DNA of 64,000 nt from a virus: IMG/VR virus record IMGVR_UViG_3300013117_000027. The stretch is one strand, 5' to 3'. Shown in pieces: positions 4,253 through 50,697 of the stretch. A program made the position numbers and the translations under genes. The first letter of the stretch is position 1; each line of letters opens with the position of its first letter. The notes below the pieces were generated by a model. It was not told the origin of the DNA and did not search any database. It saw only the letters and a program-made list of their open reading frames with translations.

Positions 4253-4761
4253 TGGATTTATTCGGAGGACGAGTAGATGTACATATGTCTTATGATGGAG
4301 ATCTAGAGTTTGAACAAGGCGATATCAAGTTGGTACGTGGTATAGATTATATAAAGCATCTTATATACAAGGTTCTTACAACAGAAAAAGGTGATTGGAA
4401 AATATATCCTCAAGAAGGTGGAAGTCCTGTAGTATTCTTAGGTGAACAAAACACTAGGGATACAGCTAAGTTACTAGAAGGACATTTAGTATCGTCATTA
4501 TCAGAATACGTTTTACCAGCTACAGTAGAAGCCAGAGTAGTTCCTATATCTCATGACTCAGTAAAGTGTTACGTTGATATTATTATATTAGGTCTTACTA
4601 TTGCACAAGTTCCATTTATGCTTGATTATATTAACGGTATAAAGTATGAAGACTTTGACGAGACAGTAGATACGGTAGTCGCATCTAAAGAGCACAGACC
4701 GAACGATAATCGTTCGCTCACAAATCCTAATCCGTATCTAGATAGAATAAGGAGACAATAA
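4252..4761 (+). CDS. gp25/gpW-like baseplate wedge protein
   Basis: 169 aa with a DLEFEQGDIKLVRG..LTTEKGDW..YP..G pattern; immediately upstream of baseplate J. Confidence 0.7.
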   Translation: MDLFGGRVDVHMSYDGDLEFEQGDIKLVRGIDYIKHLIYKVLTTEKGDWKIYPQEGGSPVVFLGEQNTRDTAKLLEGHLVSSLSEYVLPATVEARVVPISHDSVKCYVDIIILGLTIAQVPFMLDYINGIKYEDFDETVDTVVASKEHRPNDNRSLTNPNPYLDRIRRQ

Positions 4762-6026
4762 TGGCAACACGCAGAAACTTCATAGACGTACAGAATGACG
4801 CAAAGTATAGGTTAGAGAACTTCACACCTGTAACATCTTTCGAGAATCTAAGTACTTCTATGACTCTTATAAATATACTTAGTAACGAGACAGAGAAGTT
4901 GTATGATGAAGCTGAGTATCTTTTCAGTATAAATGATATAACAAGAGCTTATGGTAGAGATCTCGATAATATAGGAAGGATTATAGGATCCGAACGAGGG
5001 GATGCTACCACATCTAATGATATGACATATACTAATTTCTATTTTTATCTTGACACGAGGTTAGGAATAGATATAGGTACGTTAATCGATAGAGTTTATC
5101 CTACAAGTACTCACTATAATATTAGACAAAGATTAGAAGATCAAGGTTATATAGATAATAAAGATGTTCCTACTCAGTTAAAACTTCCTAGAGGTATGTA
5201 CGTGTCCAGCGACGATAGACGTATACTTTATACTACAGTTGAAGACGCTTATCTAACAAATGATTCTAACGAGGTATACGTTCCTGTCATAGCAACCGCT
5301 ACAGGATCCGGACAGAATGTTGGAGCTAATGTTATTATAAAGCATTCTCTTAACGAGGTTAATATTATAAAAGATCTATCTAAGTATATACTTTGTACTA
5401 ATAGATTCCCTATTACAAACGGATCGAATACTGTAAGTGATGATGACTATAGATATAATATGTCTATTAGTAGAATAAACCTTGGTGCGAACGAGGTAGC
5501 TATACGACAAGCCGCTCTTTCTGTACCAGGTGTTAGAAACGTTCTGTTTGAGCGCGCAAGATTTGGTAATGGTACATTTAATCTTATAGTAGAAGGTGTT
5601 AGTCCTCTTGTATCAGAAGGTCTTGTTACTACAGTAAAAGAGAGAGTCCAAAGTATCGTAGGTGGAGACTCAGTATATGTTCACAGACCTGAGTACATAG
5701 GCGTTGAACTGAACTTAGATCTTATTACAGAGGTAGGTACAGATACTGATCTGTTAAGAGAGACTGTTAGAAATGATATTATATCATATATAAATGATAC
5801 TACTATAGGCGGAAGACTTATATGGAACCAATTAGTAGATATTATTATAAGAGAGGGCGTTATAGACTTTGTTCTATCTTACTACAAGTTCGGAGAATAT
5901 GACATCTTTAACAAGATAAACCTTAACCAAATAGTATTAAGACCTTCTAATCAAGGTGCTAATTATAACGAGAAATTTTATATTGATGCGGGATTGTGTT
6001 CCATCTGTGTTAGGGAGCAGGGTTAA
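4761..6026 (+). CDS. Baseplate J-like protein
   Basis: Motifs RAYGRDLDNIG, VPVIATATGSGQNVGAN, NGSNTVSDDDYR, ALSVPGVRNV. Confidence 0.85.
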   Translation: MATRRNFIDVQNDAKYRLENFTPVTSFENLSTSMTLINILSNETEKLYDEAEYLFSINDITRAYGRDLDNIGRIIGSERGDATTSNDMTYTNFYFYLDTRLGIDIGTLIDRVYPTSTHYNIRQRLEDQGYIDNKDVPTQLKLPRGMYVSSDDRRILYTTVEDAYLTNDSNEVYVPVIATATGSGQNVGANVIIKHSLNEVNIIKDLSKYILCTNRFPITNGSNTVSDDDYRYNMSISRINLGANEVAIRQAALSVPGVRNVLFERARFGNGTFNLIVEGVSPLVSEGLVTTVKERVQSIVGGDSVYVHRPEYIGVELNLDLITEVGTDTDLLRETVRNDIISYINDTTIGGRLIWNQLVDIIIREGVIDFVLSYYKFGEYDIFNKINLNQIVLRPSNQGANYNEKFYIDAGLCSICVREQG

Positions 6027-6029: not shown

Positions 6030-8309
6030 ATGAACGGTAAGAATGTATATTTTTCTAATAACACTGGTAGGATTATCAATGCTGTTGTTCCTGAACACTT
6101 TAAGATGGCCAGTGACAAGACCTCTAATGGGTACAAGTATGTAAATCTTCTCTACACTATAGAAGTAGATTTACTGTACGATTATCTAGATGACGCTAGG
6201 TATAGTAATAGTCTTGAATATTTTGACTACGGAACAGACTATGATTATTTCGAGGTTACTCTTAACGAGAATGTTATTAGTGATACTGTTTATGGTGACA
6301 ATATACCTATTAAGATAACTACACAACAAGAGTTTAATGACGGATTTCCTACGCGATTTAATATTGAATCTATTATACCAGTAAGTGGAGTAAGTTATGG
6401 CGCGTTAGGAATAGAGTACGTAAGAAAAACAGCTGAGGGTTCTGGTGTTCTTCTTATTAATACTGACGTAGACGCTTCTGAAATATTTCCTTCTGGTTAT
6501 CAAACTATATCAATCAATATAGATCCTGTCGGAAGAGGTGTGTATGGTTCACCTTTATCTGGTTATAACTTTTTGGTAAGAGAACAGTCTTACGATGTAG
6601 CAGGTAATGATGAGATAATAGTCCCTCCTACAAGGCAAGAACTCTTACAGTTATATCCTGAACAAAAAAAGATATGGGCCCAGTCTGGTGTAAGTGAGTT
6701 TTCTTATAACTATTGGGTTGATCATTATACTCCTAACAATGGAGCAGTGTGGAATGACACTTTAAAAACTTGGGAAGCGCGCGGATATTCAGAAGATTAT
6801 TATCTTGATATGAATAATAACAAGGTGTACTATCGTACGTTTCTTAACAATCCACATGGTACAGGTAATTATAATGAAACGTATATGCCTTTAAAGTATG
6901 TTCCTATTAGTGGGACGTTTAAACTTTATGATCTAGATATACTTCAAAGTGGACAGCTCGTCAATATAGATGCATCAGGAACTACATTGTACATACATAG
7001 TGGTATGTATGACTTTAGTCAGTTCGATGATAGAGATGAATGGTTCTCTCCTTACAAAGGTTATGATGAAAATGTTCCTCATGAATTTATTCCTAATGGT
7101 TACAAAGAGTTAAATCCTACAGGAGTTCTTCCTGCGATTCCTTACCAAGAAGTATCTTGGGAGTTACAACACGAAGGTGCAAGAGTAGGAGACGATTTTA
7201 CATGGCAAGACGACGATACAGAACCTATTACTAATATGCTTAAGATTAAGAATGGCCAGAGTAGGTATATAGCAGAGTACTTTTATAAGATAGCTAATAA
7301 GATAGGTTACCTAACAACATTAGATTCTACCAAGTATATACGTTATGGTAATGGTAACTATACTTTCTCTATACAAGATATTACTAACAATAGACAAGAG
7401 TTTGATGTATCTTTATCCAAAGATCCTACAGATAGGAAAGCAGCTTGCTTTCATGGACTTCTTGTAAGACCATTTAGTACTATTGATCAATTAAACGTTA
7501 CTTTCGACGTTGCATCAGATCCATTAGATCTTCAGGACTCTAGTATAAATATTTACGCAAGAGCACCTAAAGTTGGAACATCTTACAGCGAGATAAAACC
7601 TATTATACATGATAAACGAACTTATATGTTTAATAAACATTGGGGAGATGTTGATCTTTCTGGAGTAGTAGATCTTCATCAAGCTACAAATGATATAGTT
7701 TCTAGTGTACCATATGGTACATATAAAGGTGTATCGCTTATACACGTTGACACTAGCGAGAATACTTACTATGAAACAATAGGTCAGTATTCTGGTTATA
7801 TGGATCTTATAACAGAAACTTCTACTAATTCTAATAGATATGTTAAGATGGGATTTAAGGTAACAAAGAGAGTTGGTGATGTAGGTGAGCAAATGCTAGC
7901 AATGTCATGTAATTCAAGCGGAGAGTTTTGGGCACTAGATCTACTTCCTAATGGAAGATTTAGAGTTAGGGATAATCTTAATACACTTATAAGTTATGAC
8001 GGTATATTTGAAGAAGGAGATAACTTTGAAAGAGAACTTATTCTTGAGCGCGATACTGATTATGATTATGGTCCAGGTTTATATCCTTACCGACTTTATA
8101 CAAGATCAACAGATACTAATCAAAGAGTAGCAGATAGTAGAAAAGATATATTTACTCAACATGGATTTGACTTAAGCGTTAACGCAAATGATCCTTCTGG
8201 AATTGTTGGTGATGTGTACGACTTTACTAAGTTATTTTACAATACATGTACTGACATAGAATATGTACAAATTTATGAAGAATCAAGGGAGTTCGTAGAT
8301 GGCCAATAA
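6030..8309 (+). CDS. Virion structural protein (baseplate/tail), Ser-Gly rich
   Basis: 759 aa, directly follows baseplate J; acidic and aromatic composition; about 13 SG dipeptides. Confidence 0.55.
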   Translation: MNGKNVYFSNNTGRIINAVVPEHFKMASDKTSNGYKYVNLLYTIEVDLLYDYLDDARYSNSLEYFDYGTDYDYFEVTLNENVISDTVYGDNIPIKITTQQEFNDGFPTRFNIESIIPVSGVSYGALGIEYVRKTAEGSGVLLINTDVDASEIFPSGYQTISINIDPVGRGVYGSPLSGYNFLVREQSYDVAGNDEIIVPPTRQELLQLYPEQKKIWAQSGVSEFSYNYWVDHYTPNNGAVWNDTLKTWEARGYSEDYYLDMNNNKVYYRTFLNNPHGTGNYNETYMPLKYVPISGTFKLYDLDILQSGQLVNIDASGTTLYIHSGMYDFSQFDDRDEWFSPYKGYDENVPHEFIPNGYKELNPTGVLPAIPYQEVSWELQHEGARVGDDFTWQDDDTEPITNMLKIKNGQSRYIAEYFYKIANKIGYLTTLDSTKYIRYGNGNYTFSIQDITNNRQEFDVSLSKDPTDRKAACFHGLLVRPFSTIDQLNVTFDVASDPLDLQDSSINIYARAPKVGTSYSEIKPIIHDKRTYMFNKHWGDVDLSGVVDLHQATNDIVSSVPYGTYKGVSLIHVDTSENTYYETIGQYSGYMDLITETSTNSNRYVKMGFKVTKRVGDVGEQMLAMSCNSSGEFWALDLLPNGRFRVRDNLNTLISYDGIFEEGDNFERELILERDTDYDYGPGLYPYRLYTRSTDTNQRVADSRKDIFTQHGFDLSVNANDPSGIVGDVYDFTKLFYNTCTDIEYVQIYEESREFVDGQ

Positions 8310-10527
8310 AGATATATTTGTTAGAGCAGTAGCATCAGGAGACGGAACAGGTCTCGACTGGTATAATGCTTATACTACATTACAAGATGCTCTTACAGAG
8401 GCAATGGCTGAGCCTGCAGCTAACACAGTTAACGTATATGTTGATGATGATATTTACACGTTGGCTTCTCTTACAGTCAGTCATAACTCAATTAATCTGT
8501 ATGGTGGTAATATTCTTACTGCTGACGTTGTTGTGTCTGGATATAATGAGATACCTGTTGGTACAACTTTTAAAAGTATTGTTTACCTAGAAGACTCAGT
8601 GTACGTACAAAGTGGTGTATTTATAACAGATTCTGTTAGGTTTATTAACTCTTCTGGAGGCTACGCTATCCAAGGTGAAGATCTTACTGACATACTTCTG
8701 AAGAAAGTTAACTTTGAAACAGACTACGGTATTGATACTAGTGGTAATCTTAGATGTGAGTTCATAAATGCTATATCGTATACTCCTCAGGAGTATACAT
8801 ATGGATTTGGAGGTTCTTACATAGCAGAGTCTGGATATTCGGACGCATTGTCTGGCAACATATTTATTAATAGTGTCGGAGAAGAGACAGTAGTTAATAA
8901 TTCCTCAATGATAGGTTACTATAACACTATAGTATTTAATGGTATCAACGACAATGAATGTATTATAGACGACGTACTTATAAAGCAGGCATCTAATGGT
9001 ATAGTTTATCAATCAGTGGGCGGTAGTGGTACATTGCGTACCAATAATATCGTTATATACGATACAGATAAATCTTTCTTATTTAAAGATACTACTATAT
9101 CAGGTGGATTAAACGGAGAGATAGGTAACTGTACATTATATACACCTTATTCATTCTCTATATCTCCTATGATAACAGGTCTTATACAGATAACAGATTC
9201 TATAATGTCCGGCGAAATGATCTACGGAGACGGTTCTCTTACTCTTACTACAGAGTACACTTTATTAGATACTACTCCCAGTGGTTACGGATTTGTTCCT
9301 GGAACAGGTATAGTCTATGGAGATCCTAAGTATATAGATGTAACAAAAGGTGACTTCAGTCTTGGAATAGGTACTGCTGACGATAGAGTATCATCTGATG
9401 GTCTTAATGTGGGATCTTATACAGAGATAGGAAGAAGTATACAATTGTCTGACTCCAAAGGATTTAGATTATCAGATTCAAGTGTAGAAGGATATGATAT
9501 GTTCTTACATAAGAGCGACGAGACCGTCGTATGGTCAGATCATATGAAAGAGATTCCTATGGCCACATTTAGAGATAATAATGGTACGTTATCGTATGTT
9601 TATAATCATACTACTACAGTAGTATTGTCTGGTGTTGTTACTATTCCTGCATTTTCTAGAGAACCTTCTTTAAACGATTGGATGTACGAATGGGACTATG
9701 AGATAATGAACAGTCCTGGTATCGAGAATAATCCTAGGATCATTCCTAAGTCTATTATAGATATTACAAATATCTTACAGAATATAGACTACGGTAAGAA
9801 TAAATCTAATATAAGCGTAAGAGCATTTAAGAATATAGATAATAGAGGCATTAGTTATGACTATGACTCTTCTAACAATACAAGTAAAATCGTATGGTCT
9901 TTGGATGGAGATCAGATGTTAACAAAGACAGACTTTTGGAACGGAAACGTTATAGATAAGTATCCACTTGTTCCTCCTATTCATCCTTCTGGTGAGAAAT
10001 TATTTATTAAACCTTCTGGACTTATACCTTATGGAGTTAATAAATATGTGACAGAGGATGATCCTGATACTATCCTAGAAAGTGTAAATGATGACGGTTC
10101 GTTTGAATGGTTATCTACAGAGAAACATAGGAAGTGGGATTTAAAAGGTATTTTAACTCATAAGGGAACTATGTATGTAACAGCATCTTTTGCTGACCAA
10201 GCATCTACAACTCCTTACGTTCTAATATATCCTAGTAGAGGTTACTATGCTGATTATCAATGTCCTGATCCTACAAAGTTAGAATTACACGATGATAACA
10301 ATGATCCAAGAGGCATAACTGTTTATGAAGACGGAAGCATTCTTATTAGCAACTACGATGTTATGTCATCCGGAATTGCTAACTATGTGAATATATTTCA
10401 CTATAAGCCATGCTTTGACTATGCTTTAAAAGAAAATAATAACTATATGAATACAAAACTTATACTTCGTGAGGCTTATGACGAAGTAACATTAGAACAG
10501 GCATTAGAAGAGCCTGATACACCATAA
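8299..10527 (+). CDS. Tail-associated protein with right-handed beta-helix (pectin-lyase-like) N-terminal domain
   Basis: N-terminal IFVRAVASGDGTGLDWYNAYTTLQDAL and closing GDPKYIDVTKGDFSL are typical beta-helix caps; propeller-like C-terminus (DPRGITVYEDGSILISN). Confidence 0.6.
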   Translation: MANKDIFVRAVASGDGTGLDWYNAYTTLQDALTEAMAEPAANTVNVYVDDDIYTLASLTVSHNSINLYGGNILTADVVVSGYNEIPVGTTFKSIVYLEDSVYVQSGVFITDSVRFINSSGGYAIQGEDLTDILLKKVNFETDYGIDTSGNLRCEFINAISYTPQEYTYGFGGSYIAESGYSDALSGNIFINSVGEETVVNNSSMIGYYNTIVFNGINDNECIIDDVLIKQASNGIVYQSVGGSGTLRTNNIVIYDTDKSFLFKDTTISGGLNGEIGNCTLYTPYSFSISPMITGLIQITDSIMSGEMIYGDGSLTLTTEYTLLDTTPSGYGFVPGTGIVYGDPKYIDVTKGDFSLGIGTADDRVSSDGLNVGSYTEIGRSIQLSDSKGFRLSDSSVEGYDMFLHKSDETVVWSDHMKEIPMATFRDNNGTLSYVYNHTTTVVLSGVVTIPAFSREPSLNDWMYEWDYEIMNSPGIENNPRIIPKSIIDITNILQNIDYGKNKSNISVRAFKNIDNRGISYDYDSSNNTSKIVWSLDGDQMLTKTDFWNGNVIDKYPLVPPIHPSGEKLFIKPSGLIPYGVNKYVTEDDPDTILESVNDDGSFEWLSTEKHRKWDLKGILTHKGTMYVTASFADQASTTPYVLIYPSRGYYADYQCPDPTKLELHDDNNDPRGITVYEDGSILISNYDVMSSGIANYVNIFHYKPCFDYALKENNNYMNTKLILREAYDEVTLEQALEEPDTP

Positions 10528-10537
10528 GGAGATTAAG

Positions 10538-11797
10538 ATGGCATATCCACAAGGTAACGCATCTCAAAATATGGACTTAGGGATTTACTCGTCTGACTTT
10601 AGTCCTGATATAACCGTAGCTGGTATAGTAGATAATCATACAACTGTAAATAAGTTAGGATTACGTAATTCATTAGGTAACCAAATTTCGTTGCTACAAA
10701 ATTTTGTATGTGAGCAATATTTAGGACGTCTATCTAGTCCTGTTGGTAGTGGATATATAAACTATCTAAGAGGTGGTCAGTATAGTAATATACATTACGG
10801 TATAGATCCAACAGGTACAGGTTCTTATACTTATGCTGAACCTGGTATCCTAATGACGAAGTATGTATACGATACTTCTACAAGTGGGGTAACTATAAGT
10901 GAGAGTGATATTAACTCTTATAGAACAATAGGAACAAGAACTTATCAAAGTAAAGCAAATGGTAGTTGGATCCAATTAAACGACTACGCAACAGATGGTA
11001 CATGGTCACAATGGGGCTCTGGACTTTTAAAAATGGTTGCAGGATATGGTAACGATAGTTCTAACTTTTCTAGTTTTATAATGAAATCTACAGGAGATAT
11101 CATCTTAGATACTGGTCCAGATCCTTACACATCAGAGGTAATAATAAGTGGTAATCTTTCCCTCCCTACAGTTAATGCTACAATGACTATACATAATGAC
11201 TTCGGTAATAATCAATTATTTATGGACGGAGCCACATTCGCACTTAATAACTATTCTACAGGCAATAATACACAACTATTTCCTAGTTCAATACAGATGA
11301 CACAAAATGCATCTATATACGGATTTAATAATTTTGCTTTGAACGGTAACGGTCCTATTATACTTAACTCAGAACGAGGATCTTTCAATGAATCTTATCT
11401 TACTATGAGTGGTGAGAATATATATATTCAAGCTGATAGAATGTTCTTAGAAGGTGAAGTATATATAAGTGGTACATTGTATAGTGATGGGGATAACAAT
11501 ATAATGCTTAGACAAAATCCTTTGATATCTTTATCACAACAAGCTTATACGTCTGTAGCAGCAGGAAATATTCTTGTAGGTTCAGGTACTACAAGCTACA
11601 TGACTTTAAAATTTGAAGAAACAGAACCTGATACAATAGAGATATACGGAAGAAATCACTTAAGATTAGGCGCACTACAAAACTTACTGTTAGGATACAA
11701 TACTAATATAATCATAGAAGGTGGACTACCATCATCTGATCCATCTGTATCAGGTGCGTTGTATGAGTCATCTGGTGTAGTAATGATCTCATTATAA
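10538..11797 (+). CDS. Putative tail fibre/spike protein
   Basis: G/S/N/T-rich beta repeats; C-terminal LPSSDPSVSGALYESSGVVMISL resembles a common phage fibre-tip motif; GGAG RBS. Confidence 0.5.
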   Translation: MAYPQGNASQNMDLGIYSSDFSPDITVAGIVDNHTTVNKLGLRNSLGNQISLLQNFVCEQYLGRLSSPVGSGYINYLRGGQYSNIHYGIDPTGTGSYTYAEPGILMTKYVYDTSTSGVTISESDINSYRTIGTRTYQSKANGSWIQLNDYATDGTWSQWGSGLLKMVAGYGNDSSNFSSFIMKSTGDIILDTGPDPYTSEVIISGNLSLPTVNATMTIHNDFGNNQLFMDGATFALNNYSTGNNTQLFPSSIQMTQNASIYGFNNFALNGNGPIILNSERGSFNESYLTMSGENIYIQADRMFLEGEVYISGTLYSDGDNNIMLRQNPLISLSQQAYTSVAAGNILVGSGTTSYMTLKFEETEPDTIEIYGRNHLRLGALQNLLLGYNTNIIIEGGLPSSDPSVSGALYESSGVVMISL

Positions 11798-11806
11798 GGA
11801 GTATAA

Positions 11807-13405
11807 ATGGCTAAGCCTGTAAAAAAGAATAGATGGACTAACGTAGATGCGTTCGCATTACTTAACGGTATAAGTACTTGGGATAAGAATTATCTTAATC
11901 TTAAGTATGTTCGTATACCTGGTGAAAGTAATATAGAACTAAGACAAAAAATTTATAATAGTCATTCAAATCCAGCTGAAGATACGTCTTTACAAAGTCT
12001 TATTCGAGGTCTTTCTAACGAGTTAAATCTTACTACATATGATATAGAATCAAAGACTACGTTTGATCTTATACGAACACCATTTCCATCAGGAGATGTT
12101 GGGATTCAAGATATATGGCTTTTCTACAAGCCACCTGGTAGTGGAGAATGGTACGAGATAGCTCCACAATTATGGGGATCTGGCTATTATACTGACTATG
12201 AAGCTAGCGAGACACAGTCTTCTGGATTTATAGTGTGGGAAGAATCTTACTATAAAGATTCGTTAGGAGTTACTACTAAGACTAGTACGTATAGTACTTT
12301 ACTAAGTGTGCTTCCTAATCCTAATCTCGAAGTTCCTCTTGTTGATAAGAGTCTCATAAAGATTATATACAATGTAAGACTTTATGATAAAGATAATAAT
12401 TCTTCTACTTATCTTTACACTGATATGCCCAACGAGTATGATGTAGATGACGATAGACTCATATATAGAATACCTTATGTTGTTCAATCAGGCGATTACT
12501 ATAATTCAGTTATAGCTTATCATCTAGATGAGGTACAAAGTTTTGCATCTGGTCTTTACTATACGTCTGGCGGTCTACCTACAGGGATGCTTTATAAGTT
12601 AAGAGACATCATAGATAATAACTTTCAACATAAATGGAAGAATGTAAGAGATAAACAATCTATATGGGATGTACATAAAGATTACAGTAAAGGTACTATA
12701 CAAAGTTTCTATGATATACCTACTGTTGTTTCTCCAGAGAATTCAGGAGAAGCATTAGATGTAGAAGATCTTTTTACCGGCGGTATAGAGTATCAAGATC
12801 CAGTACTTAATATATCAGATATATATATATCAGAAGAAGACTCTGTAGAGAGATGGTATCCTATCATGTATCCTGGCAAGTTCTATATAGGTGGTCAACA
12901 ATATTACCTAATGGAGAATCCACAGTTTTCTACTATTGAGTTATTAGATAGTTACTCGGATATATATGGTACTTGTGGTTCAGGAGTTCTACCATCTGGT
13001 ATAGAAAGATGGTATAAGATTATAACACACTTTAATAGTAATCCTTCTGGTGAAAGTTTTGTGTTTGAAGACTACAATTATAAGATACCATATAGACAAT
13101 ATGATCCTAATGACGCATCAGGTCTATATAACTTTAACACTTTGATATACAGAAAAAGACCTTATATTACAGCTGCAATGGGATATCAATTAGATCTAGG
13201 TTCTGGTGAATATAATATCGACTTTGATCAATCACCTCCTGTTATACATGTTAGTGGGGTGCATAATACAGAGTTAAACATTGTATGGGATGAGGTTACC
13301 GTTCCTAGTGGACGTATATGTAGTAACGATTATGCTGATCTTAATCCTTTAAATGGAGACAATGTAGACTTTAGTAAGTATTTCTTTGTTATAGGAGATG
13401 AGTAA
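11807..13405 (+). CDS. Virion structural protein, Ser-Gly rich
   Basis: Operon context; N-terminal DAFALLNG...RIPGESNIELRQKI resembles baseplate wedge (gpI-like) segments; 15 SG dipeptides. Confidence 0.5.
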   Translation: MAKPVKKNRWTNVDAFALLNGISTWDKNYLNLKYVRIPGESNIELRQKIYNSHSNPAEDTSLQSLIRGLSNELNLTTYDIESKTTFDLIRTPFPSGDVGIQDIWLFYKPPGSGEWYEIAPQLWGSGYYTDYEASETQSSGFIVWEESYYKDSLGVTTKTSTYSTLLSVLPNPNLEVPLVDKSLIKIIYNVRLYDKDNNSSTYLYTDMPNEYDVDDDRLIYRIPYVVQSGDYYNSVIAYHLDEVQSFASGLYYTSGGLPTGMLYKLRDIIDNNFQHKWKNVRDKQSIWDVHKDYSKGTIQSFYDIPTVVSPENSGEALDVEDLFTGGIEYQDPVLNISDIYISEEDSVERWYPIMYPGKFYIGGQQYYLMENPQFSTIELLDSYSDIYGTCGSGVLPSGIERWYKIITHFNSNPSGESFVFEDYNYKIPYRQYDPNDASGLYNFNTLIYRKRPYITAAMGYQLDLGSGEYNIDFDQSPPVIHVSGVHNTELNIVWDEVTVPSGRICSNDYADLNPLNGDNVDFSKYFFVIGDE

Positions 13406-13902
13406 TGAGACGTAAAAGAAGACCAAATCTTATAATAACTAATCGTAGTGTACTTCCATATAATATAGATGGTGATACTATGAAATTCAAGATTATATAT
13501 CGCGATGATCAACAGCAAAGTTATGTTGCTGGTATTAGTGGATACGTATATGGTAATATAGGAGTTAGTGGCGCTACTATTAATATGGGTCTATTTGTGA
13601 CTGACAAGTTTGGTCAATGTGACTTCTTATATAATACCGACTTAATAGAAGATAGGAATATAAATACTGCTAAGTTTTGGGCTTCTGGAGTTCATGAAAA
13701 TTGGGGACTAGATGTTAATTCTTGTATAGCAAGAGCAGACTATATATACATAGATCAACTAAGCGGTATTATTATAACAGCTGGTACTTGTGGAGACTTT
13801 AATGATCTTGGAACAAGATATGACTTTGATGAATTTGATGGATATAGAATAACAGAATCAGGATTAAATAATATTACTGTTATAGAAAGGCCTTGGATAT
13901 AA
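13405..13902 (+). CDS. Hypothetical structural protein
   Basis: TAATG-coupled at both ends; 5 SG dipeptides in 165 aa. Confidence 0.5.
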   Translation: MRRKRRPNLIITNRSVLPYNIDGDTMKFKIIYRDDQQQSYVAGISGYVYGNIGVSGATINMGLFVTDKFGQCDFLYNTDLIEDRNINTAKFWASGVHENWGLDVNSCIARADYIYIDQLSGIIITAGTCGDFNDLGTRYDFDEFDGYRITESGLNNITVIERPWI

Positions 13903-15986
13903 TGTCAGTAAACTTCCTTAAGAAGAAAGATGGATACGATATAAGTATGTGTCCTATAGCTACAGTACGATTAGATGGATTTAGTCCTACAAAGATAACT
14001 AAACTCATAGATTACTCTAATGATGTCCACGAGAATAGTGAAAACTATGTACAGACACAAATAATATTAGCTGATAGAGATGGAGCAGAAGATACTACTC
14101 CTATCTCAGGATTTCCTCTTACATATTATGAGACAACATTCAGATATAAGTCTACATTCTTTGTAACAGATAAAGTTAACGATAACAATGATCCTTTATA
14201 CTTTTCTTACGAGTTAAAGTTTGATGTAAACGGCGTTACAGATACAGATATAATAGAAGTATTAAAGAATAATACTACACCTTTAAGACCTGATCAGTTT
14301 AAGCTACAGTTTGGACATGTATCTCTTACAGATAACTACTATGGTACCAAGGATGCAGGATTAGATAGGTATGGAAGGGATATAGTATGGGGTCCTATAG
14401 ATGGATCTAAGAATATACATAGGGTTAGAGTTTTACTGCCTATAGATGTTGTTAATAGAAGTGATTTTTACACTGTTAGATACAATAAGAGCCTGTTTAA
14501 CATCAGTTATCCTGCTCATTTTGAGTTAATAGAGTTAACAACACTGTATACAGAGACAATAGACTGGGATATACAGGAAGATAAGGTAGTCTTACCGACG
14601 ACATCCTTTATATCTAACGTTAACACTAAGCAGCTCTACATAACAAAAGATCCTAATGCACACATAGCCGTCGAAGGTGTTATAAGTATGAACGCTGAAG
14701 GATATCAAAGTGACGCTGAGTCATCGTGGAACGCACGCATATCACACGGTTCATTTCTTACTAACCTCGATGAAAGATTTTATCAAGCTAAGTTTGTACC
14801 GATAGACGTCGATAACCCTCAAGAGAAATACCAGTTGATAACGTACGTTAATCCAAAGCTTCTCGGTGGTAACATCGTTAGAATCGAAGATGCTCCTATT
14901 CATATTACCACAGTAGACGATTTAGGTTCGCCATCTGGATATGTATATCCTTACTATGACGTGACTATCTTTCCTAAAGAGTCGTTTGATAATATTATAC
15001 CTATTGGAACATTCGGTATAGACGTAGATGGTGTTGATGTTTCAAGAATAAAGATCTCATCTATAGACAGACAAAAGGGATACATACTGTTTAATAAGCA
15101 ATTTAATCCACAAGAAGATGTAGATTTCTTCTTTTATACTGATTGTTCTAGTAAGTCTTATATATATAATCTAGAACTTAATCCTAGAATTAGTGGAGAG
15201 TATGGTATATCACATATATGTGAGAATACTATAAAGAATATAGGTGTTGCAGTAAGAGAGTCCCCAGAAGTTGGTGTCGGAGATTCTTATACTAATAGAC
15301 TAAGATATCATAGTCTTTATTTCTTTGATTATGAAGCTGTTGCTGATGACGGTCAGGTCACTTTCTACAGGGGTAACCAAATTCCGGGGCTAAGTACATA
15401 TAGTGAGGTAGGATACTTAAGATGGAATCCTTTCGACGGAAAAGAAAGTTCTACGGGACAGTTTATACCTTTATCACATGTTTCTGTTAATAGAATGTTT
15501 CCAGATATACTTACAGTGAGAGATGCTAGGATCATAGCAGGCGGTTTCACATCACAAGAACAGAAAAGGCTTAATAACGAACAAAAGAATTCATACACAG
15601 ATATAGGCTATTGGGATGGTGAACCATTACCTCACGCTGGACTTATAGTTATTCACTTACCTAGCACTATATATCCTAATCTTATAACCAAGTGGAAAGA
15701 GTCAGGTCTATTTAATCCTGACATGTATACAGATATAACAAAAGAAGAGATAGAACAACTAGCTGCAGCTAGTGGAGAAGATTATGATGAATATTATAGT
15801 AAACTTCTAGAGGGTTACTCTGTTAATAACGAGAAAGTAAAAGATCCTTACGAGACTATGTTAACTTCATGGGCTAAGAAGGAAGCATCTCATTACTTAG
15901 ATCAACTTATAAAGAAGTATATACCAGCAGGAACGCAGTATATACTATTAGATGAGAACTTTAATCAAATAAAATTGGATTTATAA
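13902..15986 (+). CDS. Virion structural protein
   Basis: Long ORF in the structural operon; start placed at the TAATG overlap rather than TTG 13893. Confidence 0.5.
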   Translation: MSVNFLKKKDGYDISMCPIATVRLDGFSPTKITKLIDYSNDVHENSENYVQTQIILADRDGAEDTTPISGFPLTYYETTFRYKSTFFVTDKVNDNNDPLYFSYELKFDVNGVTDTDIIEVLKNNTTPLRPDQFKLQFGHVSLTDNYYGTKDAGLDRYGRDIVWGPIDGSKNIHRVRVLLPIDVVNRSDFYTVRYNKSLFNISYPAHFELIELTTLYTETIDWDIQEDKVVLPTTSFISNVNTKQLYITKDPNAHIAVEGVISMNAEGYQSDAESSWNARISHGSFLTNLDERFYQAKFVPIDVDNPQEKYQLITYVNPKLLGGNIVRIEDAPIHITTVDDLGSPSGYVYPYYDVTIFPKESFDNIIPIGTFGIDVDGVDVSRIKISSIDRQKGYILFNKQFNPQEDVDFFFYTDCSSKSYIYNLELNPRISGEYGISHICENTIKNIGVAVRESPEVGVGDSYTNRLRYHSLYFFDYEAVADDGQVTFYRGNQIPGLSTYSEVGYLRWNPFDGKESSTGQFIPLSHVSVNRMFPDILTVRDARIIAGGFTSQEQKRLNNEQKNSYTDIGYWDGEPLPHAGLIVIHLPSTIYPNLITKWKESGLFNPDMYTDITKEEIEQLAAASGEDYDEYYSKLLEGYSVNNEKVKDPYETMLTSWAKKEASHYLDQLIKKYIPAGTQYILLDENFNQIKLDL

Positions 15987-24413: not shown

Positions 24414-25793
24414 ATGCCAAAATATAGTGATATTTTTATCAAAATTATGGATCAAGGGATTGATCCTGTTCCAATGACAATGCTGTCGAAGTGGAGTAAC
24501 GAAGGTAACTCTATTGTTCATGTTGAATCTTCTGGTCTTGTTCCTGAGAATATAGAGTTAAGAACATTACTGTATCCATCAGGTGCTGGGTTATCTAGTG
24601 CTACTATACAGTACTTACTAGATAGAGATAATACTAACATCTTGTTAGGATACGTACGGAACTCTGGGTACTATTTTAATGTACAACATTTCTATGATAA
24701 TCTTAGAAAGTATAAGTATGACCATGTAATAGCTCATGATGACCAGAATGATTACTACTTCCTAGCTTACTCAGCAAGTGCCATAGGTGAAACTTCTATA
24801 TTTCAGGAGGTTATAGCCGAGGTTCCAGGTGTAGTTCTTACAAAGCCTGCTGTTCCTAACCCTAATAACATATCGGTAGAAGCACAGGTACTGTCAGAGA
24901 ATCCTGAAGTGTCAGATATACAGTTATCTTTATACCATAAGCGAGAAATTAACAACTTCTGGTTATCAGATCCAGATCCTTACAAGGTTTATATCTGGGG
25001 TAAAGAAACTAATCTTTACTACGAGCCAGATGGCACACCTATACCGTCTCCTGGCCAGGCAACAGCTAACAACTTCTTCGAAGACTCTTTAAGTGGTATG
25101 TTTCTTACTCTTCCTTTTGTTTCAGGAGATATAGGTAGTTCTAAGAAGAGAACTTATGAGATATCTATGACTTACTATGATCAAGATGGTGATCAGACAC
25201 CGGCGATAACATTTGATACTGATAAGATCAACGAAAGTTCAGACCTTTTCGACGTAGGAGAGATAGAATCTTTCTTAGATGTTAAAGCTGAAAAGGTAGA
25301 AGAAATACCTATAAAGAAAGACGTTGTTCTAAAGAAAAGACTGGCTGTAGGAGTAGAAGATCTAGGTATAATGAACGAGTTATACTCTAAAGAAGGAGTA
25401 TACGTGTCAGAGTACTATAACCTAGACGATCCATTGTATACATTTTATATGAAAGCAGGGGAAACTCTTCCTGAAACTGACGGGTACAGTATTGTTAGGT
25501 ACTACGTACAGTTTAATAACCAGGATTGGGTAAGATTCTCTCCTGTAACAAGACTAAATGAGGTAGATGATGACGGGAACTTTTTACCAAAGTTCTTTGT
25601 TCTAGATGACCTTAATATAGGACATATATCTACACAGTTAACAGAGCTAAAGTACGACTTTCCTGTTTACTCGTTTAGGATTAGAATAGAGATAGATATG
25701 TCGTTCATGGAGACTAACAACTTTATATCTCCAGCTATAGACTATTACGAATGTCATGTGACAGATCGTAATTCATTCATGAGGGTTGAATAA
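24414..25793 (+). CDS. Hypothetical structural protein
   Basis: AGGAG RBS; C-terminal SPAIDYYE resembles neighbouring structural ORFs. Confidence 0.5.
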   Translation: MPKYSDIFIKIMDQGIDPVPMTMLSKWSNEGNSIVHVESSGLVPENIELRTLLYPSGAGLSSATIQYLLDRDNTNILLGYVRNSGYYFNVQHFYDNLRKYKYDHVIAHDDQNDYYFLAYSASAIGETSIFQEVIAEVPGVVLTKPAVPNPNNISVEAQVLSENPEVSDIQLSLYHKREINNFWLSDPDPYKVYIWGKETNLYYEPDGTPIPSPGQATANNFFEDSLSGMFLTLPFVSGDIGSSKKRTYEISMTYYDQDGDQTPAITFDTDKINESSDLFDVGEIESFLDVKAEKVEEIPIKKDVVLKKRLAVGVEDLGIMNELYSKEGVYVSEYYNLDDPLYTFYMKAGETLPETDGYSIVRYYVQFNNQDWVRFSPVTRLNEVDDDGNFLPKFFVLDDLNIGHISTQLTELKYDFPVYSFRIRIEIDMSFMETNNFISPAIDYYECHVTDRNSFMRVE

Positions 25794-28700
25794 TGAGCAT
25801 AAAGATAGAACTTTTATACGAGAAGATATTTCTTAACTTTACCACAGGAGTGTACGGTGTTCCTAAGATACCTACAGAACGTGAAATAGCTAAGAAGATA
25901 GAGGAAATCACTAAGGACGATGAAGATCCTATAACAAAGAATGTCATGCTTAAAGATGTGTTCATCGATGAGATTCATGATACTTTCGATGATGTTATAG
26001 ATGACCTTGATGTTCTTTATAATGCTATTGAGAATCAATCTATTAATATATTAGAACAACTTACTAACTCATTGAAAGAACACAATGGAGTTAAACGTGA
26101 ACTTAGAAATATAAAGTCTAGAGCTGACGATATTCGTGCAGGAAAACTGGGTAAGAATTATTTACAGTATGTTCACACAGAAAACTTCACAGATATGGAC
26201 AATCTTAATGTTACTAGGACTACAAATGATCCTGATACTAAGTCTCCTGTTGTAGATATAAAAGCAGGTACTATGTACATACCTAATGTTCTTTCTAATC
26301 TTGTAGATTTAACACATTATTATCAACGAAAATTAGACATTGTTAATACTGAATTCGTAGGTACTATAAAAGAAGCAGGGTATATGGGTATAGCAGATTC
26401 GAATATTATATTCGATGTTTCAGATGATAGACGACTTGTTTATAGAGTCCAAACAGATGTTCCGTCTGCTATGAAAACTTCGTTTGTTATACAATTAGAT
26501 CCTCAAAGAGAATCTATACAGATAAATGGTATAGCTATTAATGTTGATGCTGATAATACTGTTGGTCACTTAAGAGTTCAGTATAAAAAAGATACAGGAT
26601 GGGAAAACATCCCTGAAGTACCTATTTCGGAGATAACAAGTGATAGAATTCTATTAAGATTCGAGAACATAGAGACTACTCACCTTAAGTTTCAGTTTAT
26701 CAAACAGACACCTGATATACTAGATTCTAATGAATACTTTGTAGTGATAAATAACTTGTCTATATTTCATGCGTTAACCTATAAATCGTCTACTTATCAT
26801 TCTAAGTCTATTTTATTAGAACCTTATAATAACGAGAAACCTGTTATAGGAAATGTTGCTGTAGAGGCTAATGGGTATATTCCTGAAGGATGTGCAGCAG
26901 ACGTATACGTGTCTAAAGATAAGATTATACGTGGTTATTTTGTAGATGTTAATGATGAATATGTCCTTCCTACAAGTGCCCACGTGTATAAGTTTGTAGA
27001 AGATGAAGATCAGACTTATCCTACAAGACATGTTTTACTATCAGATATTTATAACAATTTAGAGGCTCAAGATCTTGATGATTATAGAAATATTGACTAT
27101 GACTGGCAGCTTGTTAAAAGTTTTACAGATGCTGATAGTATAAAACCAGCTATTATACAATTCATCGGTTCTGTAGACAAGGTTCCTAACGATAACAGAC
27201 TTTATAACGAACTTAATGTACTATTCGGAGATCCTGCATATACCGGTGAGTATCCTCAAAATCCTCATCCAGACAATCCAGACACATGGTTTTTATCAGG
27301 AGTAATAGATGAATCAAATCCTTATTGGGATCTTTACATGTCAGGTCTTGTAGCGTCTGGATACATAGCTAGTAGTGGTACTTATGGAGATCCTACTGGA
27401 TATCCTTTTAATTACTATGATTATTCAAGTCTTAGTTACCTTAAATTTGGAGAGATAATAGAATCTTTAGATGGATGGTACCGACCTAGTGTAGATATTG
27501 TTACTCCGTCTGGTTATAACGAGGTTATTCATGGAAGAGTTACAGAAAATGTACCAGATTATTACTTTAACGGTATACGATACTATCATGTATATAAGTT
27601 CTCATTAGATAGTAATGTAGTAGAATCTACTATAAAACTATACACTTACCAGACTGGTCCTAATACAGGCACGAGAGAAAGCTATGTATCTAATAACGGA
27701 GTATGGGTATATAATACCAAAGATGTTATAAAAAGTTTAGAATATTCTACAGCAGACCCTAATCCGTTCACAGATGATGATCCAATAGGACCTCCAGCGT
27801 CAGGTGCTATCTTGATACCTATTCCTTCTGGGGATGTATTTGTTCAAGACAGCGTTAGAGAGTTACATTATACCGGATATAATAATATACTACAGCGCGG
27901 AATACATTACGACGTCGTGTTAGACTATAGTCTTAATTGGTGGGTAGATATGTGGAAATCGCAGACTACAGAATCTTACTCTCCGTTACAGAACGTCGAG
28001 TTTACATACTCTTACAGAACAGAAGATAAATACGCTTCTTACTGGGAAGGGTACATTATAACAGGTGTAGATGGATCATTAACCGTACATCAACTGGTAG
28101 ACAGTGATAACGAAAATATTGTAAATAGAATTCTAATAGAAGATCTAGAAGGTAAGAGTATATACAACGACGTTATGGATGATGTAACAAAGATTGTGAC
28201 TATACCTAAAGGTGTTTATAGATATAAATTCTTCTGTCAGACAGACAACTATACAAAGTATGCTAAGAATAACTGGTCACCTTATTCTGATCAATTTGTA
28301 AAAACTAGTAGCGAAATGAAATTAGTGTCTAAAGTTGAACCACTTAACATAGTTGATTTTGATATCTTACTTCATAGTACACCATATGAACGCGACGATA
28401 GAGCAGCGTTAGTACATAAGAGAGACGGTAAATACCTAGTTGTTAAAGAACCATCATTAAATATAGTACAAGGATACTACTTCCACGCTGGTAAAAGTAT
28501 ATATCAAAATATTCCTGCTGATAGATCTCGTAATATAGGCCATTATCAACGTAAGTTTCTACAACATGTAGGTACTACTGGGTATTACTTAGAAGAATAT
28601 ATTACAGGTTCTAGTGGTAATATAGTTAACAGTACTACAGGAAGTCACTACAATGTAACATCTGGATATCAACAAGATCTTACCTGGAATGATGGTATAC

Positions 28701-29008
28701 TATATCCTGAGGACTTCTCTAATACACGTAATGATGTACAATACGCACAGCACTCATCTTATGGTTACTCATTACACATTGATGATGTAACAGATGAGTC
28801 TACATCTAGAGGACATTTATTTTATAATACCGCTGAAAACTTAGCCGATTTCTATACTATTACATACGGCGAAGTAGACACTGATGATCCTACAGTAGAT
28901 AGATTTCTTTATAAGATAGAGTTAAAGAGTGAACATAAGATTAATACTCCTATCTTAGAATCAGTTAAGTTTACAATGAACGTAATGGAGGAAGAATATG
29001 AGGACTAA
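25793..29008 (+). CDS. Large virion structural protein (paralogous family; SG-rich C-terminal half)
   Basis: 1071 aa; FDDVIDDLDVLY...ENFTD...VDIKAGTMYI pattern. Confidence 0.5.
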   Translation: MSIKIELLYEKIFLNFTTGVYGVPKIPTEREIAKKIEEITKDDEDPITKNVMLKDVFIDEIHDTFDDVIDDLDVLYNAIENQSINILEQLTNSLKEHNGVKRELRNIKSRADDIRAGKLGKNYLQYVHTENFTDMDNLNVTRTTNDPDTKSPVVDIKAGTMYIPNVLSNLVDLTHYYQRKLDIVNTEFVGTIKEAGYMGIADSNIIFDVSDDRRLVYRVQTDVPSAMKTSFVIQLDPQRESIQINGIAINVDADNTVGHLRVQYKKDTGWENIPEVPISEITSDRILLRFENIETTHLKFQFIKQTPDILDSNEYFVVINNLSIFHALTYKSSTYHSKSILLEPYNNEKPVIGNVAVEANGYIPEGCAADVYVSKDKIIRGYFVDVNDEYVLPTSAHVYKFVEDEDQTYPTRHVLLSDIYNNLEAQDLDDYRNIDYDWQLVKSFTDADSIKPAIIQFIGSVDKVPNDNRLYNELNVLFGDPAYTGEYPQNPHPDNPDTWFLSGVIDESNPYWDLYMSGLVASGYIASSGTYGDPTGYPFNYYDYSSLSYLKFGEIIESLDGWYRPSVDIVTPSGYNEVIHGRVTENVPDYYFNGIRYYHVYKFSLDSNVVESTIKLYTYQTGPNTGTRESYVSNNGVWVYNTKDVIKSLEYSTADPNPFTDDDPIGPPASGAILIPIPSGDVFVQDSVRELHYTGYNNILQRGIHYDVVLDYSLNWWVDMWKSQTTESYSPLQNVEFTYSYRTEDKYASYWEGYIITGVDGSLTVHQLVDSDNENIVNRILIEDLEGKSIYNDVMDDVTKIVTIPKGVYRYKFFCQTDNYTKYAKNNWSPYSDQFVKTSSEMKLVSKVEPLNIVDFDILLHSTPYERDDRAALVHKRDGKYLVVKEPSLNIVQGYYFHAGKSIYQNIPADRSRNIGHYQRKFLQHVGTTGYYLEEYITGSSGNIVNSTTGSHYNVTSGYQQDLTWNDGILYPEDFSNTRNDVQYAQHSSYGYSLHIDDVTDESTSRGHLFYNTAENLADFYTITYGEVDTDDPTVDRFLYKIELKSEHKINTPILESVKFTMNVMEEEYED

Positions 29009-31518: not shown

Positions 31519-31874
31519 TGAATTATTCACCAGATTTAAGTAATAAGATAAGAGCCATGGACGCTGATATAAAGGCTTTAACGAAGAGAGTTGCAGACCT
31601 TGAAAATATACTAGGTATGTCTGTTAGTTTATCACACCTTAAAACTTCAGAAGAAGCTACTAAAGTGTTAATAAATAGCAATGCTCAGAATATAAGAGAT
31701 ATTGAAGAGAAGTTATCTAAGATAACTCTTCCAGATGACACTAGGTACTATCTAGAAGAGTCTGAGGTTCAAGATTTCAGATCAAACTTTCAAAAGCTCA
31801 ACGCATTGATGGTAGATGTTAGGAATCTGTACGATCAGATGGTTGCTTACTTAGCAAACAACACTCCTACGTAA
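31518..31874 (+). CDS. Small coiled-coil hypothetical protein
   Basis: Heptad-like helical sequence; TAATG coupled. Confidence 0.5.
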   Translation: MNYSPDLSNKIRAMDADIKALTKRVADLENILGMSVSLSHLKTSEEATKVLINSNAQNIRDIEEKLSKITLPDDTRYYLEESEVQDFRSNFQKLNALMVDVRNLYDQMVAYLANNTPT

Positions 31875-44235: not shown

Positions 44236-45372
44236 ATGAAGATACTTGTAAGAGGACCTTACTCACAATCAGGTTTCGGCGTTGCCTGTATAGGACTTAT
44301 CAAAGTCCTGTTAAACGCTGGTCACGACGTTCAGTTTATCCCACTTAATACTAACCCAGGACAACATAAGATAGGATTCTCTCAAGAGCTTGCTACACTT
44401 ATAGATAGTCTCGTGGTAGATGAGGACGCAAAGAAACATACTGAAGTAGGAATAGATGTAGGAAGTCTTATCTATGGGCTTTCTGTTCCGCCTTTAGAAG
44501 TTGATAAGAATATACTGTACTGCACAACAGAGACAACAGACATACACGAAGACTACGTTGCTATGATGAACGAAAAGTATGATGAAATATGGACAGCTAC
44601 TAATTTTAATAAGATAGGTTTCATGTCATCTGGCGTTAGTAATACTATTAAAGTACTACCTCACGTCATAGATACTGATCACTTCAATCCGGAAGCATTG
44701 CCACTGAACATAGCTAATAAAAGAGAGTTTAACTTTGTTGCTAACTTTGATCTATCATATAGAAAAGGATTACACTTACTACTCCCAGCATATACGGAAG
44801 TATTTGATGCGGATGATGATGTTGCGTTGATACTTAAGATTACTAACAATAACTTTAAGGATAGAAATGCTGCTGTTCAAAAACTGAATGAGTTATTCTT
44901 TATGATGGATATTAATAGTAAAAAACATGCACCTATACTGTTCATGTTTGATATGTTACCAGATAACTATCTACCAGGACTTTATACAACAGGTGATGTT
45001 TATGTGGCACCTAATCTAGGGGAAGGATTCGCACTTCCTATTGCTGAGGCAATGGCGTGTGGTATTCCACCTATTGTGACAAGATGTGGTGGACCATTAG
45101 ACTATGTTAATAGTAAGAGTGGATTCCTTGTATCATTAGATAAAGAGAAATCTACTATACCTATTCAAGATCAATCATTACTACAACGTGACCCTCGATA
45201 CAGAGGAAGAAGCATCTTTAACATAGACATAGAATCTTTAAAAGAGAAGCTAAAAGATGCACACTTAAACGCAACAGAGACAAAAGAAAAAGGATTAAAA
45301 GCTAGAGAGCGTGTGCTTTCAAAGTTATCCCTAGAAGCAGTCACTAAGAAACTAGAGAAGATACTATGTTAA
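44236..45372 (+). CDS. GT4-family glycosyltransferase (no intein)
   Basis: SGFGVA, ETT, YRKG, GEGFALPIAEAMACGIP. Confidence 0.9.
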   Translation: MKILVRGPYSQSGFGVACIGLIKVLLNAGHDVQFIPLNTNPGQHKIGFSQELATLIDSLVVDEDAKKHTEVGIDVGSLIYGLSVPPLEVDKNILYCTTETTDIHEDYVAMMNEKYDEIWTATNFNKIGFMSSGVSNTIKVLPHVIDTDHFNPEALPLNIANKREFNFVANFDLSYRKGLHLLLPAYTEVFDADDDVALILKITNNNFKDRNAAVQKLNELFFMMDINSKKHAPILFMFDMLPDNYLPGLYTTGDVYVAPNLGEGFALPIAEAMACGIPPIVTRCGGPLDYVNSKSGFLVSLDKEKSTIPIQDQSLLQRDPRYRGRSIFNIDIESLKEKLKDAHLNATETKEKGLKARERVLSKLSLEAVTKKLEKILC

Positions 45373-45809
45373 GACTTAACTTAGGATGTGGATCCGTCAA
45401 ACATGACGGGTTCACTAATGTAGATATACTAGACAATGATAATGTAGATATTGTTCATGATCTCAATCAGATACCATGGCCGTTCGAAGATGAATCTATA
45501 GAGGAGATAATAGCAGAGGATGTGTTAGAACATTTACAGGATACACCAGCTATTATGAATGAAATGTGGAGAATATTAGAAGACGGTGCGACAGCAACCA
45601 TTCAAGTTCCCGACGTAATAAGAAATCCTCAATCAGCATACACCGACCCAACACATATACGTTTCTTCACCGATAGAACATTTGATTATTGGGATGAGAA
45701 TACAGAGTTTGGTGAGAAGTATGGATACTATTATGATAATAAATACTCAATTATACATAAGTCATTCCCTTACGGTAATGTAAAAGTAGTGATGCAGAAG
45801 GTGACATAA
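45366..45809 (+). CDS. Class I SAM-dependent methyltransferase
   Basis: RLNLGCG, DIVHDL, VLEHL, DPTH. Confidence 0.85.
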   Translation: MLRLNLGCGSVKHDGFTNVDILDNDNVDIVHDLNQIPWPFEDESIEEIIAEDVLEHLQDTPAIMNEMWRILEDGATATIQVPDVIRNPQSAYTDPTHIRFFTDRTFDYWDENTEFGEKYGYYYDNKYSIIHKSFPYGNVKVVMQKVT

Positions 45810-50505: not shown

Positions 50506-50697
50506 AATAATAGGACTAACACATAACTATCTCCCTCAAAATGGTAGCCTTCTTTGTGGTGCTATGGAAATGAATACGATATACATAAAAGTTTATGGGG
50601 ACCAGAAGACTTTTTTGATTGGAAACAAATAACTGAAACATTATTCCCTGGTTCTAACCAATACTTTATAGGAGTATGGAATGCAACAAATACCTAA
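50498..50697 (+). pseudogene. Internally deleted methyltransferase-like remnant
   Basis: MNRIIGLTHNYLPQNGSLLCG in one frame, then YGNEYDIHKSLWGPEDFFDW... in another. Confidence 0.4.

Follow-up and report, generated by a model that had tools for sequence, protein, structure and literature searches.

Ser-Gly turns in outer virion proteins of a group of large uncultured phages: a candidate O-glycosylation sequon

Ser-Gly excess in the tail module

The window analysed here is a stretch of 64,000 nt from the genome of an uncultured 140-kb phage (IMG/VR record IMGVR_UViG_3300013117_000027). It contains a tail module, in which five consecutive open reading frames (ORFs, each named by its first position) are rich in the dipeptide Ser-Gly (SG), and, at 41–55 kb, a locus of sugar genes (Table 1). 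The five SG-rich ORFs follow directly downstream of the gene for a Baseplate_J protein, which is the last unenriched gene and forms the boundary of the SG zone, and none of them matches a family in Pfam or PHROGs. An initial annotation of this DNA had drawn attention to these dipeptides and had proposed them as acceptor sites for the glycosyltransferases encoded at 41–55 kb.

Dipeptides were counted in every ORF of at least 100 amino acids (aa) in the window and compared with a null of 2000 within-protein shuffles. The counts in the five ORFs are exactly those of the initial annotation; its comparison counts were also right for Baseplate_J (1), ORF 15986 (3), and the primase-helicase (6), and the hub contains five SG, not about four. 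Pooled, the five ORFs hold 57 SG versus 19.4 expected (z 9.6), which places SG first among the 400 dipeptides (runner-up, z 3.4) and agrees with the earlier statement that composition alone is unlikely to account for it. The excess is specific for both residues and for their order. GS, despite the same composition, stands at expectation (~1.0), and in ORF 11807 it occurs four times, every one within GSG, as had been described. Other X-G pairs are not raised (observed versus expected: NG, 17 versus 16.7; DG, 14 versus 17.2; TG, 13 versus 15.9; GG, 10 versus 18.2; AG likewise), and no S-X pair besides SG is raised, SS being at or below expectation. Ser/Gly-rich patches were therefore rejected as the source of the excess, because GS, SS, and GG are not raised.

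The codons used for Ser and Gly at the SG sites are varied and proportional to general usage, in agreement with the initial annotation, and the pattern (TCN or AGY)GGN occurs 57 times in frame 0 versus 4 times in the other two coding-strand frames. The SG excess is thus a protein-level signal, and a DNA repeat or DNA motif was rejected as its cause. A shared repeat or paralogy was rejected as well, since BLASTP detected neither mutual similarity among the five ORFs nor internal repeats (no self-hits). As a control, 21 structural proteins of phage T4, including all baseplate and fibre proteins, contain 79 SG versus 72 expected; the excess is therefore not general to contractile-tail hardware, and a generic property of myovirus tail proteins was rejected. 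An apparent avoidance of SA in the window (0 versus 8.2 expected) was dropped, because the relatives do not reproduce it. Outside the tail module, a Cas4-like nuclease (phrog_1706; 31867–32943, minus strand) has 4 SG versus 0.8 expected (z 3.8), which is probably due to chance because its orthologues in three related genomes (G001, G002, and G003) are not enriched. ARAGORN detected no tRNA in any part of the window.

Table 1. Features of the window discussed in the text, with SG counts and z scores from within-protein shuffles
Feature	Position	Strand	Basis or SG content
Sheath-initiator (gp25-like) protein	at 4252		Pfam and PHROGs
Baseplate_J (gp6-like) wedge protein	4761..6026	+	PF04865, E 1e-17; 1 SG, 1.9 expected
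SG-rich outer baseplate protein, 759 aa	6030..8309	+	13 SG, z 4.9
SG-rich tail or fibre protein, 742 aa	8299..10527	+	15 SG, z 4.1
Ser- and Gly-rich tail protein, 419 aa	10538..11797	+	9 SG, z 1.7 (weak excess)
SG-rich protein with two beta-sandwich domains, 532 aa	11807..13405	+	15 SG, z 6.9
Small SG-rich protein, 165 aa	13405..13902	+	5 SG, z 5.1
Tail protein, weakly SG-enriched in the window	13893..15986	+	z 1.3
Two tail-module proteins, 459 and 1071 aa	24414..29008	+	Moderate SG excess, z 2.3 and 2.5
Core GT-B glycosyltransferase, intein-split	41060..43681	+	Intein and LAGLIDADG domains
Accessory sugar genes	44236..52221	+	Pfam matches; largely window-specific
Core GT4 glycosyltransferase, intein-split	52554..54914	+	Pfam domains; intact exteins

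Ser-Gly excess in homologues and related phages

Roughly 30 related uncultured phages share the SG excess, which recurs in over 100 homologues. The comparison set comprised 27 related loci and three complete or near-complete IMG/VR genomes; cultured relatives were found neither by megablast nor by tblastn with ORF 11807, and Baseplate_J gave remote matches only. In every relative SG sets in abruptly right after Baseplate_J, with z of 4–7 in the ORFs located there, and in the SG-rich loci it is the top dipeptide (z 10–12.6). The Baseplate_J orthologues themselves are enriched in none of the 27 loci. A chance or composition artefact could appeal to ORF 10538, whose z of 1.7 is by itself not significant, but the pooled z, the behaviour of GS with its identical composition, and the replication among relatives and homologues leave this explanation with essentially no probability; the shuffles and the replication together already refute it.

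ORF 11807 has 46 metagenomic homologues with 32–72% identity. In the alignment of 42 homologues, 457 SG are present versus 104 expected, with per-protein z of 2–9 in nearly all, and SG appears in 82 distinct columns versus 29 for GS at an equal expectation; 27 of the SG columns hold the dipeptide in at least five sequences and 55 are rare. The family of ORF 6030 gave a similar picture (225 SG versus 66 expected; 73 distinct columns versus 39 for GS), all 27 of its database homologues having z of 2.7–8.3. Many of the sites are lineage-specific in both families. The orthologues of ORF 8299 have observed/expected (O/E) ratios of 3–4.5 in most relatives, the exceptions being those of G001 (2 observed versus 1.6 expected) and L048 (3 versus 3.4), and those of ORF 10538 have ratios of 1.5–2.7. 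Weak excesses in the window can be clear elsewhere: the orthologues of ORF 13893 reach z of 3.5 in G002 and 5.4 in G003, and those of the protein pair at 24414..29008 reach 4.3–6.1 in the same two genomes, the 36 homologues of ORF 25793 ranging from 0.4 to 5.9.

The proteins with and without the excess fall into distinct virion parts. The sheath-initiator protein is unenriched across the relatives, portal and enzymes are likewise without the excess, and the hub is unenriched or depleted, as in L070:1639-8688 (0 SG versus 7.8 expected). In the complete genome G002, the portal and the ribonucleotide reductase are not enriched, the major capsid protein is at most weakly enriched (z 1.3), and the giant proteins in the tape-measure slot (116549–129684; L013/L014) have 5 SG versus 12.3 expected and 9 versus 14.0 (z −2.4 and −1.4). 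The same genome has an enriched 920-aa sheath protein (z 2.7) and an enriched Big_5 immunoglobulin (Ig)-like protein (z 4.6). Comparison of the two sets points to the outward-facing part of the virion as the target of SG: the SG-bearing proteins are those of the outer baseplate and fibres, together with Ig-like decoration proteins and part of the sheath.

Apart from this comparison, the depletion of SG in the giant tape-measure-slot proteins and the hub is the reverse of what is seen in the outer proteins. The hub ORF of the window (66–3425, 1119 aa) contains an endolysin-like segment at aa 725–940 (phrog_20474), and its orthologues in the relatives are 2300–2560 aa long.

Sequence context and structural position of the Ser-Gly sites

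Pro is enriched ~4-fold at position −1 of SG, with V and I enriched upstream at −3 and −2, and V, Y, I, F, and L downstream at +1 and +2. Among acidic residues, Glu at +1 (2.8-fold) and Asp at −4 (2.0-fold) are raised, and no others. The overall context, hydrophobic-x-(P)-S-G-hydrophobic-hydrophobic, reads as a predicted strand, (P)SG, and a second strand. The AlphaFold2 (AF2) model of ORF 11807 (predicted local distance difference test score, pLDDT, 75) is mostly composed of β-structure, in which ~10 of the 15 SG are located in coil, two at a strand end, and three in short helical segments; five or six immediately precede a strand (e.g. 139/140, 438/439, and 466/467). Foldseek gave no match of this model in the PDB at E 0.001 or better, and a wide fold search returned generic Ig-like/β-sandwich matches only (Z ≤5.8). 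The model of ORF 6030 was poor (pLDDT 52.6), and its confident segments alone were used; in these, SG 307/308, 316/317, and 630/631 are placed in short turns linking successive strands. Where SG is frequent in an alignment column, the sequences lacking it have N, D, E, K, or T and then G, N, or S, or carry indels, which marks these columns as polar loop positions. Thus, SG is a selected, serine-specific, and directional motif in turns and loops of outward-facing virion proteins.

In the Big_5 Ig-like protein of G002 (146440–147051; L015:6440-7051, minus strand), encoded beside the capsid gene, five SG recur at gaps of 4–8 residues along a linker-like stretch, outside an obvious strand–turn–strand setting.

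An x-P-S-G sequence ahead of a strand fits the classical type I turn with G1 bulge, and the sites here have the corresponding arrangement in sequence and AF2 secondary structure, with Gly ending the turn directly before the strand, a polar residue preceding it, and Pro common two positions before Gly. The foremost alternative to a modification site is accordingly a habit of this phage lineage, which would build its β-hairpin and β-arch turns (type I with G1 bulge, or two-residue) with an unmodified Ser-Gly as an inherited turn architecture; the joint lack of SG and transferases in one relative, described below, would then be coincidental. We consider this unlikely on balance, although a good deal is in its favour. 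It accommodates the SG found in turns or immediately before strands in the models, the frequent Pro at −1, and the retention of Gly at many sites where Ser is lost (giving KG, NG, TG, or GG), and it agrees with the conservation of many sites within a family, such as S294-G295, which is invariant in the ORF 6030 family. The SG-poor relatives, furthermore, have mildly raised NG or DG, and G001 has lost SG in several proteins in spite of having transferases. By turn propensity, however, DG and NG would be favoured no less than SG, and TG would be admissible too, whereas SG alone is raised, 3- to 4-fold, among proteins without detectable mutual similarity, leaving Asp, Asn, and Thr unused. The habit also leaves unexplained why a single protein set is concerned, why the T4 baseplate and fibre proteins have no excess, why new SG columns are ~2–3 times as frequent as new GS columns, and why SG recurs in the linker-like Big_5 stretch; moreover, the orthologues in one relative fold without SG, and there the excess vanishes as a block.

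Selection on a surface property is another conceivable cause, in which SG would replace deamidation-prone Asn-Gly or isomerisation-prone Asp-Gly for environmental survival, or would simply provide uncharged turns. The proteins concerned are indeed the exposed ones, and NG or DG is mildly raised in SG-poor relatives where the SG-rich ones have SG. Neither NG nor DG is depleted in the SG-rich proteins, however, and NG even has an O/E of 1.6 in the ORF 6030 family, so that selection against Asn-Gly is unlikely; the other small uncharged pairs (TG, AG, GG, and SS) are not raised either. We regard this explanation as very improbable.

The sugar-gene locus and its distribution

Of the transferase genes in the locus, 41060 and 52554 are conserved group-wide; in the window an intein splits each of them. 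The intein of 41060 spans ~aa 364–737 (~42149–43270), and its exteins align end to end with a 496-aa orthologue in G002, which matches PF00534 weakly. The best PDB sequence match of this 496-aa core GT-B enzyme is chlorovirus B736L (3oy2; E 1e-6; query residues 258–460), and distant homologues occur in a few cultured phages. Orthologues of 41060 are found in G001, G002, G003, G005, and G006; the copy in G006 (95% complete; G006:C1:84569-86050) has one in-frame TAA, for which recoding, a split gene, or an error in sequencing could be responsible. The intein of 52554 spans ~aa 262–680 (~53337–54593); its orthologues in G001, G002, and G003 have 40–51% identity, and those in G005 and G006 are 55% identical to the G002 copy.

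The accessory set between the two core genes comprises a GT4 glycosyltransferase (44236), a methyltransferase, an intein-bearing FnlA/CapE-like dehydratase, a UDP-GlcNAc 2-epimerase, an RmlD-like reductase, a GT32-like gene (50681), and a GT2 glycosyltransferase (51499). Transferase domains of the window are thus of the GT4/GT-B type in 41060, 44236, and 52554, GT2 in 51499, and GT32-like in 50681; the GT-B enzymes belong to Glycos_transf_1 / Glyco_trans_1_4 (GT4-like) in Pfam. Four intein-bearing genes are found within 19 kb (36156–39575, 41060–43681, 46519–48594, and 52554–54914), namely those of the primase-helicase, GT-B, the FnlA-like dehydratase, and GT4, each with Hint or intein-splicing and LAGLIDADG domains, and intein-free orthologues of such genes occur in the relatives.

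The distribution of the accessory genes separates them from the motif. The FnlA/FnlC/RmlD-like genes, GT2, the GT32-like gene, and the methyltransferase have no homologue in G002 and G003, in which the SG excess is as strong as or stronger than in the window; GT4 44236 and the 2-epimerase have only weak partial matches there (the 2-epimerase in G003), and orthologues of GT4 44236 and ORF 45809 are present in G001. Because the FnlA/FnlC/RmlD-like pathway is missing from the SG-rich G002 and G003, it cannot define the SG motif. A FucNAc-type pathway was accordingly rejected as the determinant of SG, and the deoxyHexNAc (+187 Da) that the initial annotation had suggested looking for on SG serines can for the same reason not be what defines the motif. 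Both core GT-B genes, on the other hand, are present in the SG-rich window, G002, G003, G005, and G006, and in the partly SG-enriched G001.

Full and partial loss of the Ser-Gly excess in two relatives

One relative lacks the excess altogether. It is represented by a JGI contig of 51.8 kb (loci L001, L063, L064, L071, and L072), a genome fragment collinear with the window from ORF 11807 to ORF 57893 with 30–50% identity. None of its tail proteins is enriched: the orthologue of ORF 11807 has 2 SG versus 2.4 expected and that of ORF 25793 has 3 versus 7.4, and DG is mildly raised. In the family tree, L001 is nested inside the clade of the window on a long branch (1.34 versus a median of 0.36), indicating that the SG-less state is a derived loss. 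Since these orthologues lack the excess, SG is not required for the fold. The families of ORFs 25793 and 6030 yielded no further SG-less lineage.

The same contig also lacks the sugar genes. In place of 41060–54914 of the window, the 219-aa protein that comes after the primase-helicase is separated from a ClpP-like gene by four small ORFs, none of them a transferase; no glycosyltransferase match was found in the 51.8-kb contig with Pfam, and none to any of 17 sugar-gene products with tblastn. In all, the SG excess and the core GT-B pair occur together in six genomes and are both missing from one collinear contig, a single contrast with G001 partly discordant. This co-occurrence fits the idea of a sequon.

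G001 (25% GC, 64% complete) occupies an intermediate position. The excess is gone from its orthologues of ORFs 8299, 11807, 13405, and 13893, about half of the tail proteins, and is retained in those of ORFs 6030, 19580, and 25793. Genes that the SG-rich genomes share and G001 lacks amount to a ClpP-like protease, an RNA ligase, and some small ORFs, a set that says little about the motif. The protease (174 aa; 55252–55776) lies directly after GT4 52554 in the window and has orthologues in G002, G003, and the SG-less relative, and none in G001. A patatin-like phospholipase (PF01734, E 5e-17), which closes the tail module of the window at 30631–31518, is found at the matching place in the SG-less relative as well (L064:6836-7738).

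Candidate role as an O-glycosylation sequon

Based on these observations, we propose that the serines of SG may be acceptor sites for O-glycosylation by the conserved GT-B pair 41060 and 52554, an assignment that we consider the best supported of those weighed here, possible yet somewhat short of probable. It presumes in turn that the serines are modified, that the modification would be a sugar, and that these two enzymes would be responsible. In such a mechanism, O-glycosylation would occur in the cytoplasm on folded or folding β-rich proteins at the SG serines, the two group-wide conserved GT-B transferases would provide the base, and the additional genes of the window (the L-FucNAc-type pathway, GT2, the GT32-like gene, the second GT4, and the methyltransferase) would elaborate on it a strain-specific glycan. 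Strain-specific sugar genes could thereby diversify the virion coat across the phage group. In its broadest form, still more tentatively put forward, the SG turn sequon would direct a cytoplasmic O-glycosylation by the phages themselves that coats outer baseplate, fibre, and decoration proteins in a widespread group of uncultured contractile-tailed phages with genomes of 140–230 kb. The original proposal, that SG is the acceptor for the transferases at 41–55 kb, is thus partly supported, in that the motif is selected, lies at turns of outer proteins, and is linked to 41060 and 52554; it is not supported for the deoxyHexNAc pathway, GT2, the GT32-like gene, and the methyltransferase, which are absent from the SG-rich G002 and G003.

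Several points weigh against this assignment. The association with the transferases depends on one SG-less lineage, whose contig is a fragment. G001 retains three GT-B genes and yet has lost the excess in several proteins. The co-occurrence of SG and the glycosyltransferase locus, which the initial annotation had named as a check, thus has one contrast, the SG-less relative without the sugar locus, and a partly discordant case in G001. The SG serines are presumed to be exposed because of their predicted location in turns and because the same columns carry polar substitutions and indels. As x-P-S-G before a strand also fits a type I turn with G1 bulge, part of the signal could be purely structural. 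Lastly, one of the core GT-B genes adjoins the replication genes, and DNA or another substrate might be the target.

The motif evidence as such shows selection of Ser before Gly and not the identity of what is attached, and SG could also serve another modification of the serine, such as a phospho-form, acylation, or cross-linking, or be recognised, in chaperoning or assembly, by some factor of host or phage other than the two GT-B enzymes. However, no kinase, acyltransferase, or cross-linking enzyme is found among the annotated ORFs of the window, and the sugar locus is the sole gene set found to be absent together with the motif; we therefore hold a modification of this other kind to be improbable.

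If O-glycosylation at SG is correct, virion glycosylation in phages would have a sequon that can be read from the sequence, and a second case would stand beside the mycobacteriophages, mechanistically different from theirs. Sugars would coat the receptor-binding apparatus throughout an entire group of large environmental phages, which would bear on host recognition, particle stability, and the evasion of defences or grazers, and the glycosyltransferase genes so often found in large phage genomes would gain a function. If SG is only a turn-building habit, it would be a striking lineage-specific structural code, lost as a block in one relative.

Comparison with known systems

The SG pattern is a candidate form of phage virion glycosylation, itself an already known phenomenon; no description of an SG sequon in phage proteins came up in our literature search. 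The established case is that of mycobacteriophage virions, whose capsid and tail-tube subunits bear glycans at their C-termini (Freeman et al. 2023, Cell Host Microbe, as cited in PMC12619734). As far as that account goes, the two systems are alike in that phage transferases are proposed to decorate the structural proteins of their own particle. They differ in the sites, which are here dispersed SG turns of outer baseplate and fibre proteins, with the major capsid protein at z 1.3, and in the kind of evidence, the modification being shown there by chemistry and here proposed from sequence and models.

Attachment to a serine followed by Gly recalls the Ser-Gly xylosylation of proteoglycans, which the initial annotation had invoked. 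The flanks of SG are mainly hydrophobic or Pro in the phage proteins, whereas those in proteoglycans are acidic clusters, and the proteoglycan system is eukaryotic and belongs to the secretory pathway; it serves as an analogy only. Animal proteoglycan xylosyltransferases belong to GT14, and no GT14-type domain was detected in the window with Pfam. The type I turn with G1 bulge, or a two-residue hairpin, resembles the SG sites in having x-P-S-G followed by a strand and in its predicted placement between consecutive strands in the AF2 models; the exclusive 3- to 4-fold preference for Ser, in one protein set of one phage group, distinguishes the sites from such turns in general. Chlorovirus B736L, which among solved structures comes closest in sequence to the 496-aa core enzyme, is likewise a virus-encoded GT-B protein, but the similarity is weak and partial and does not indicate the acceptor.

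The closest working analogue of the proposed system is the BAHT family of bacterial autotransporter heptosyltransferases (TibC/AAH), which act on TibA and AIDA-I. TibC is a cytoplasmic enzyme with a GT-B fold that heptosylates Ser, not Thr, in turn loops of a β-helix, and one mapped site of TibA lies in the sequence N-S-G-G (PMC4358343). The likeness consists in a GT-B enzyme and many serines in short inter-strand loops of a β-rich surface protein; correspondingly, the SG of the phage proteins lie at short inter-strand loops in the secondary structure of the AF2 models, and TG shows no excess. By Pfam, the phage enzymes are GT4-like and match no heptosyltransferase family, and their putative acceptors are β-sandwich virion proteins, whereas those of the BAHT enzymes are β-helix passenger domains.

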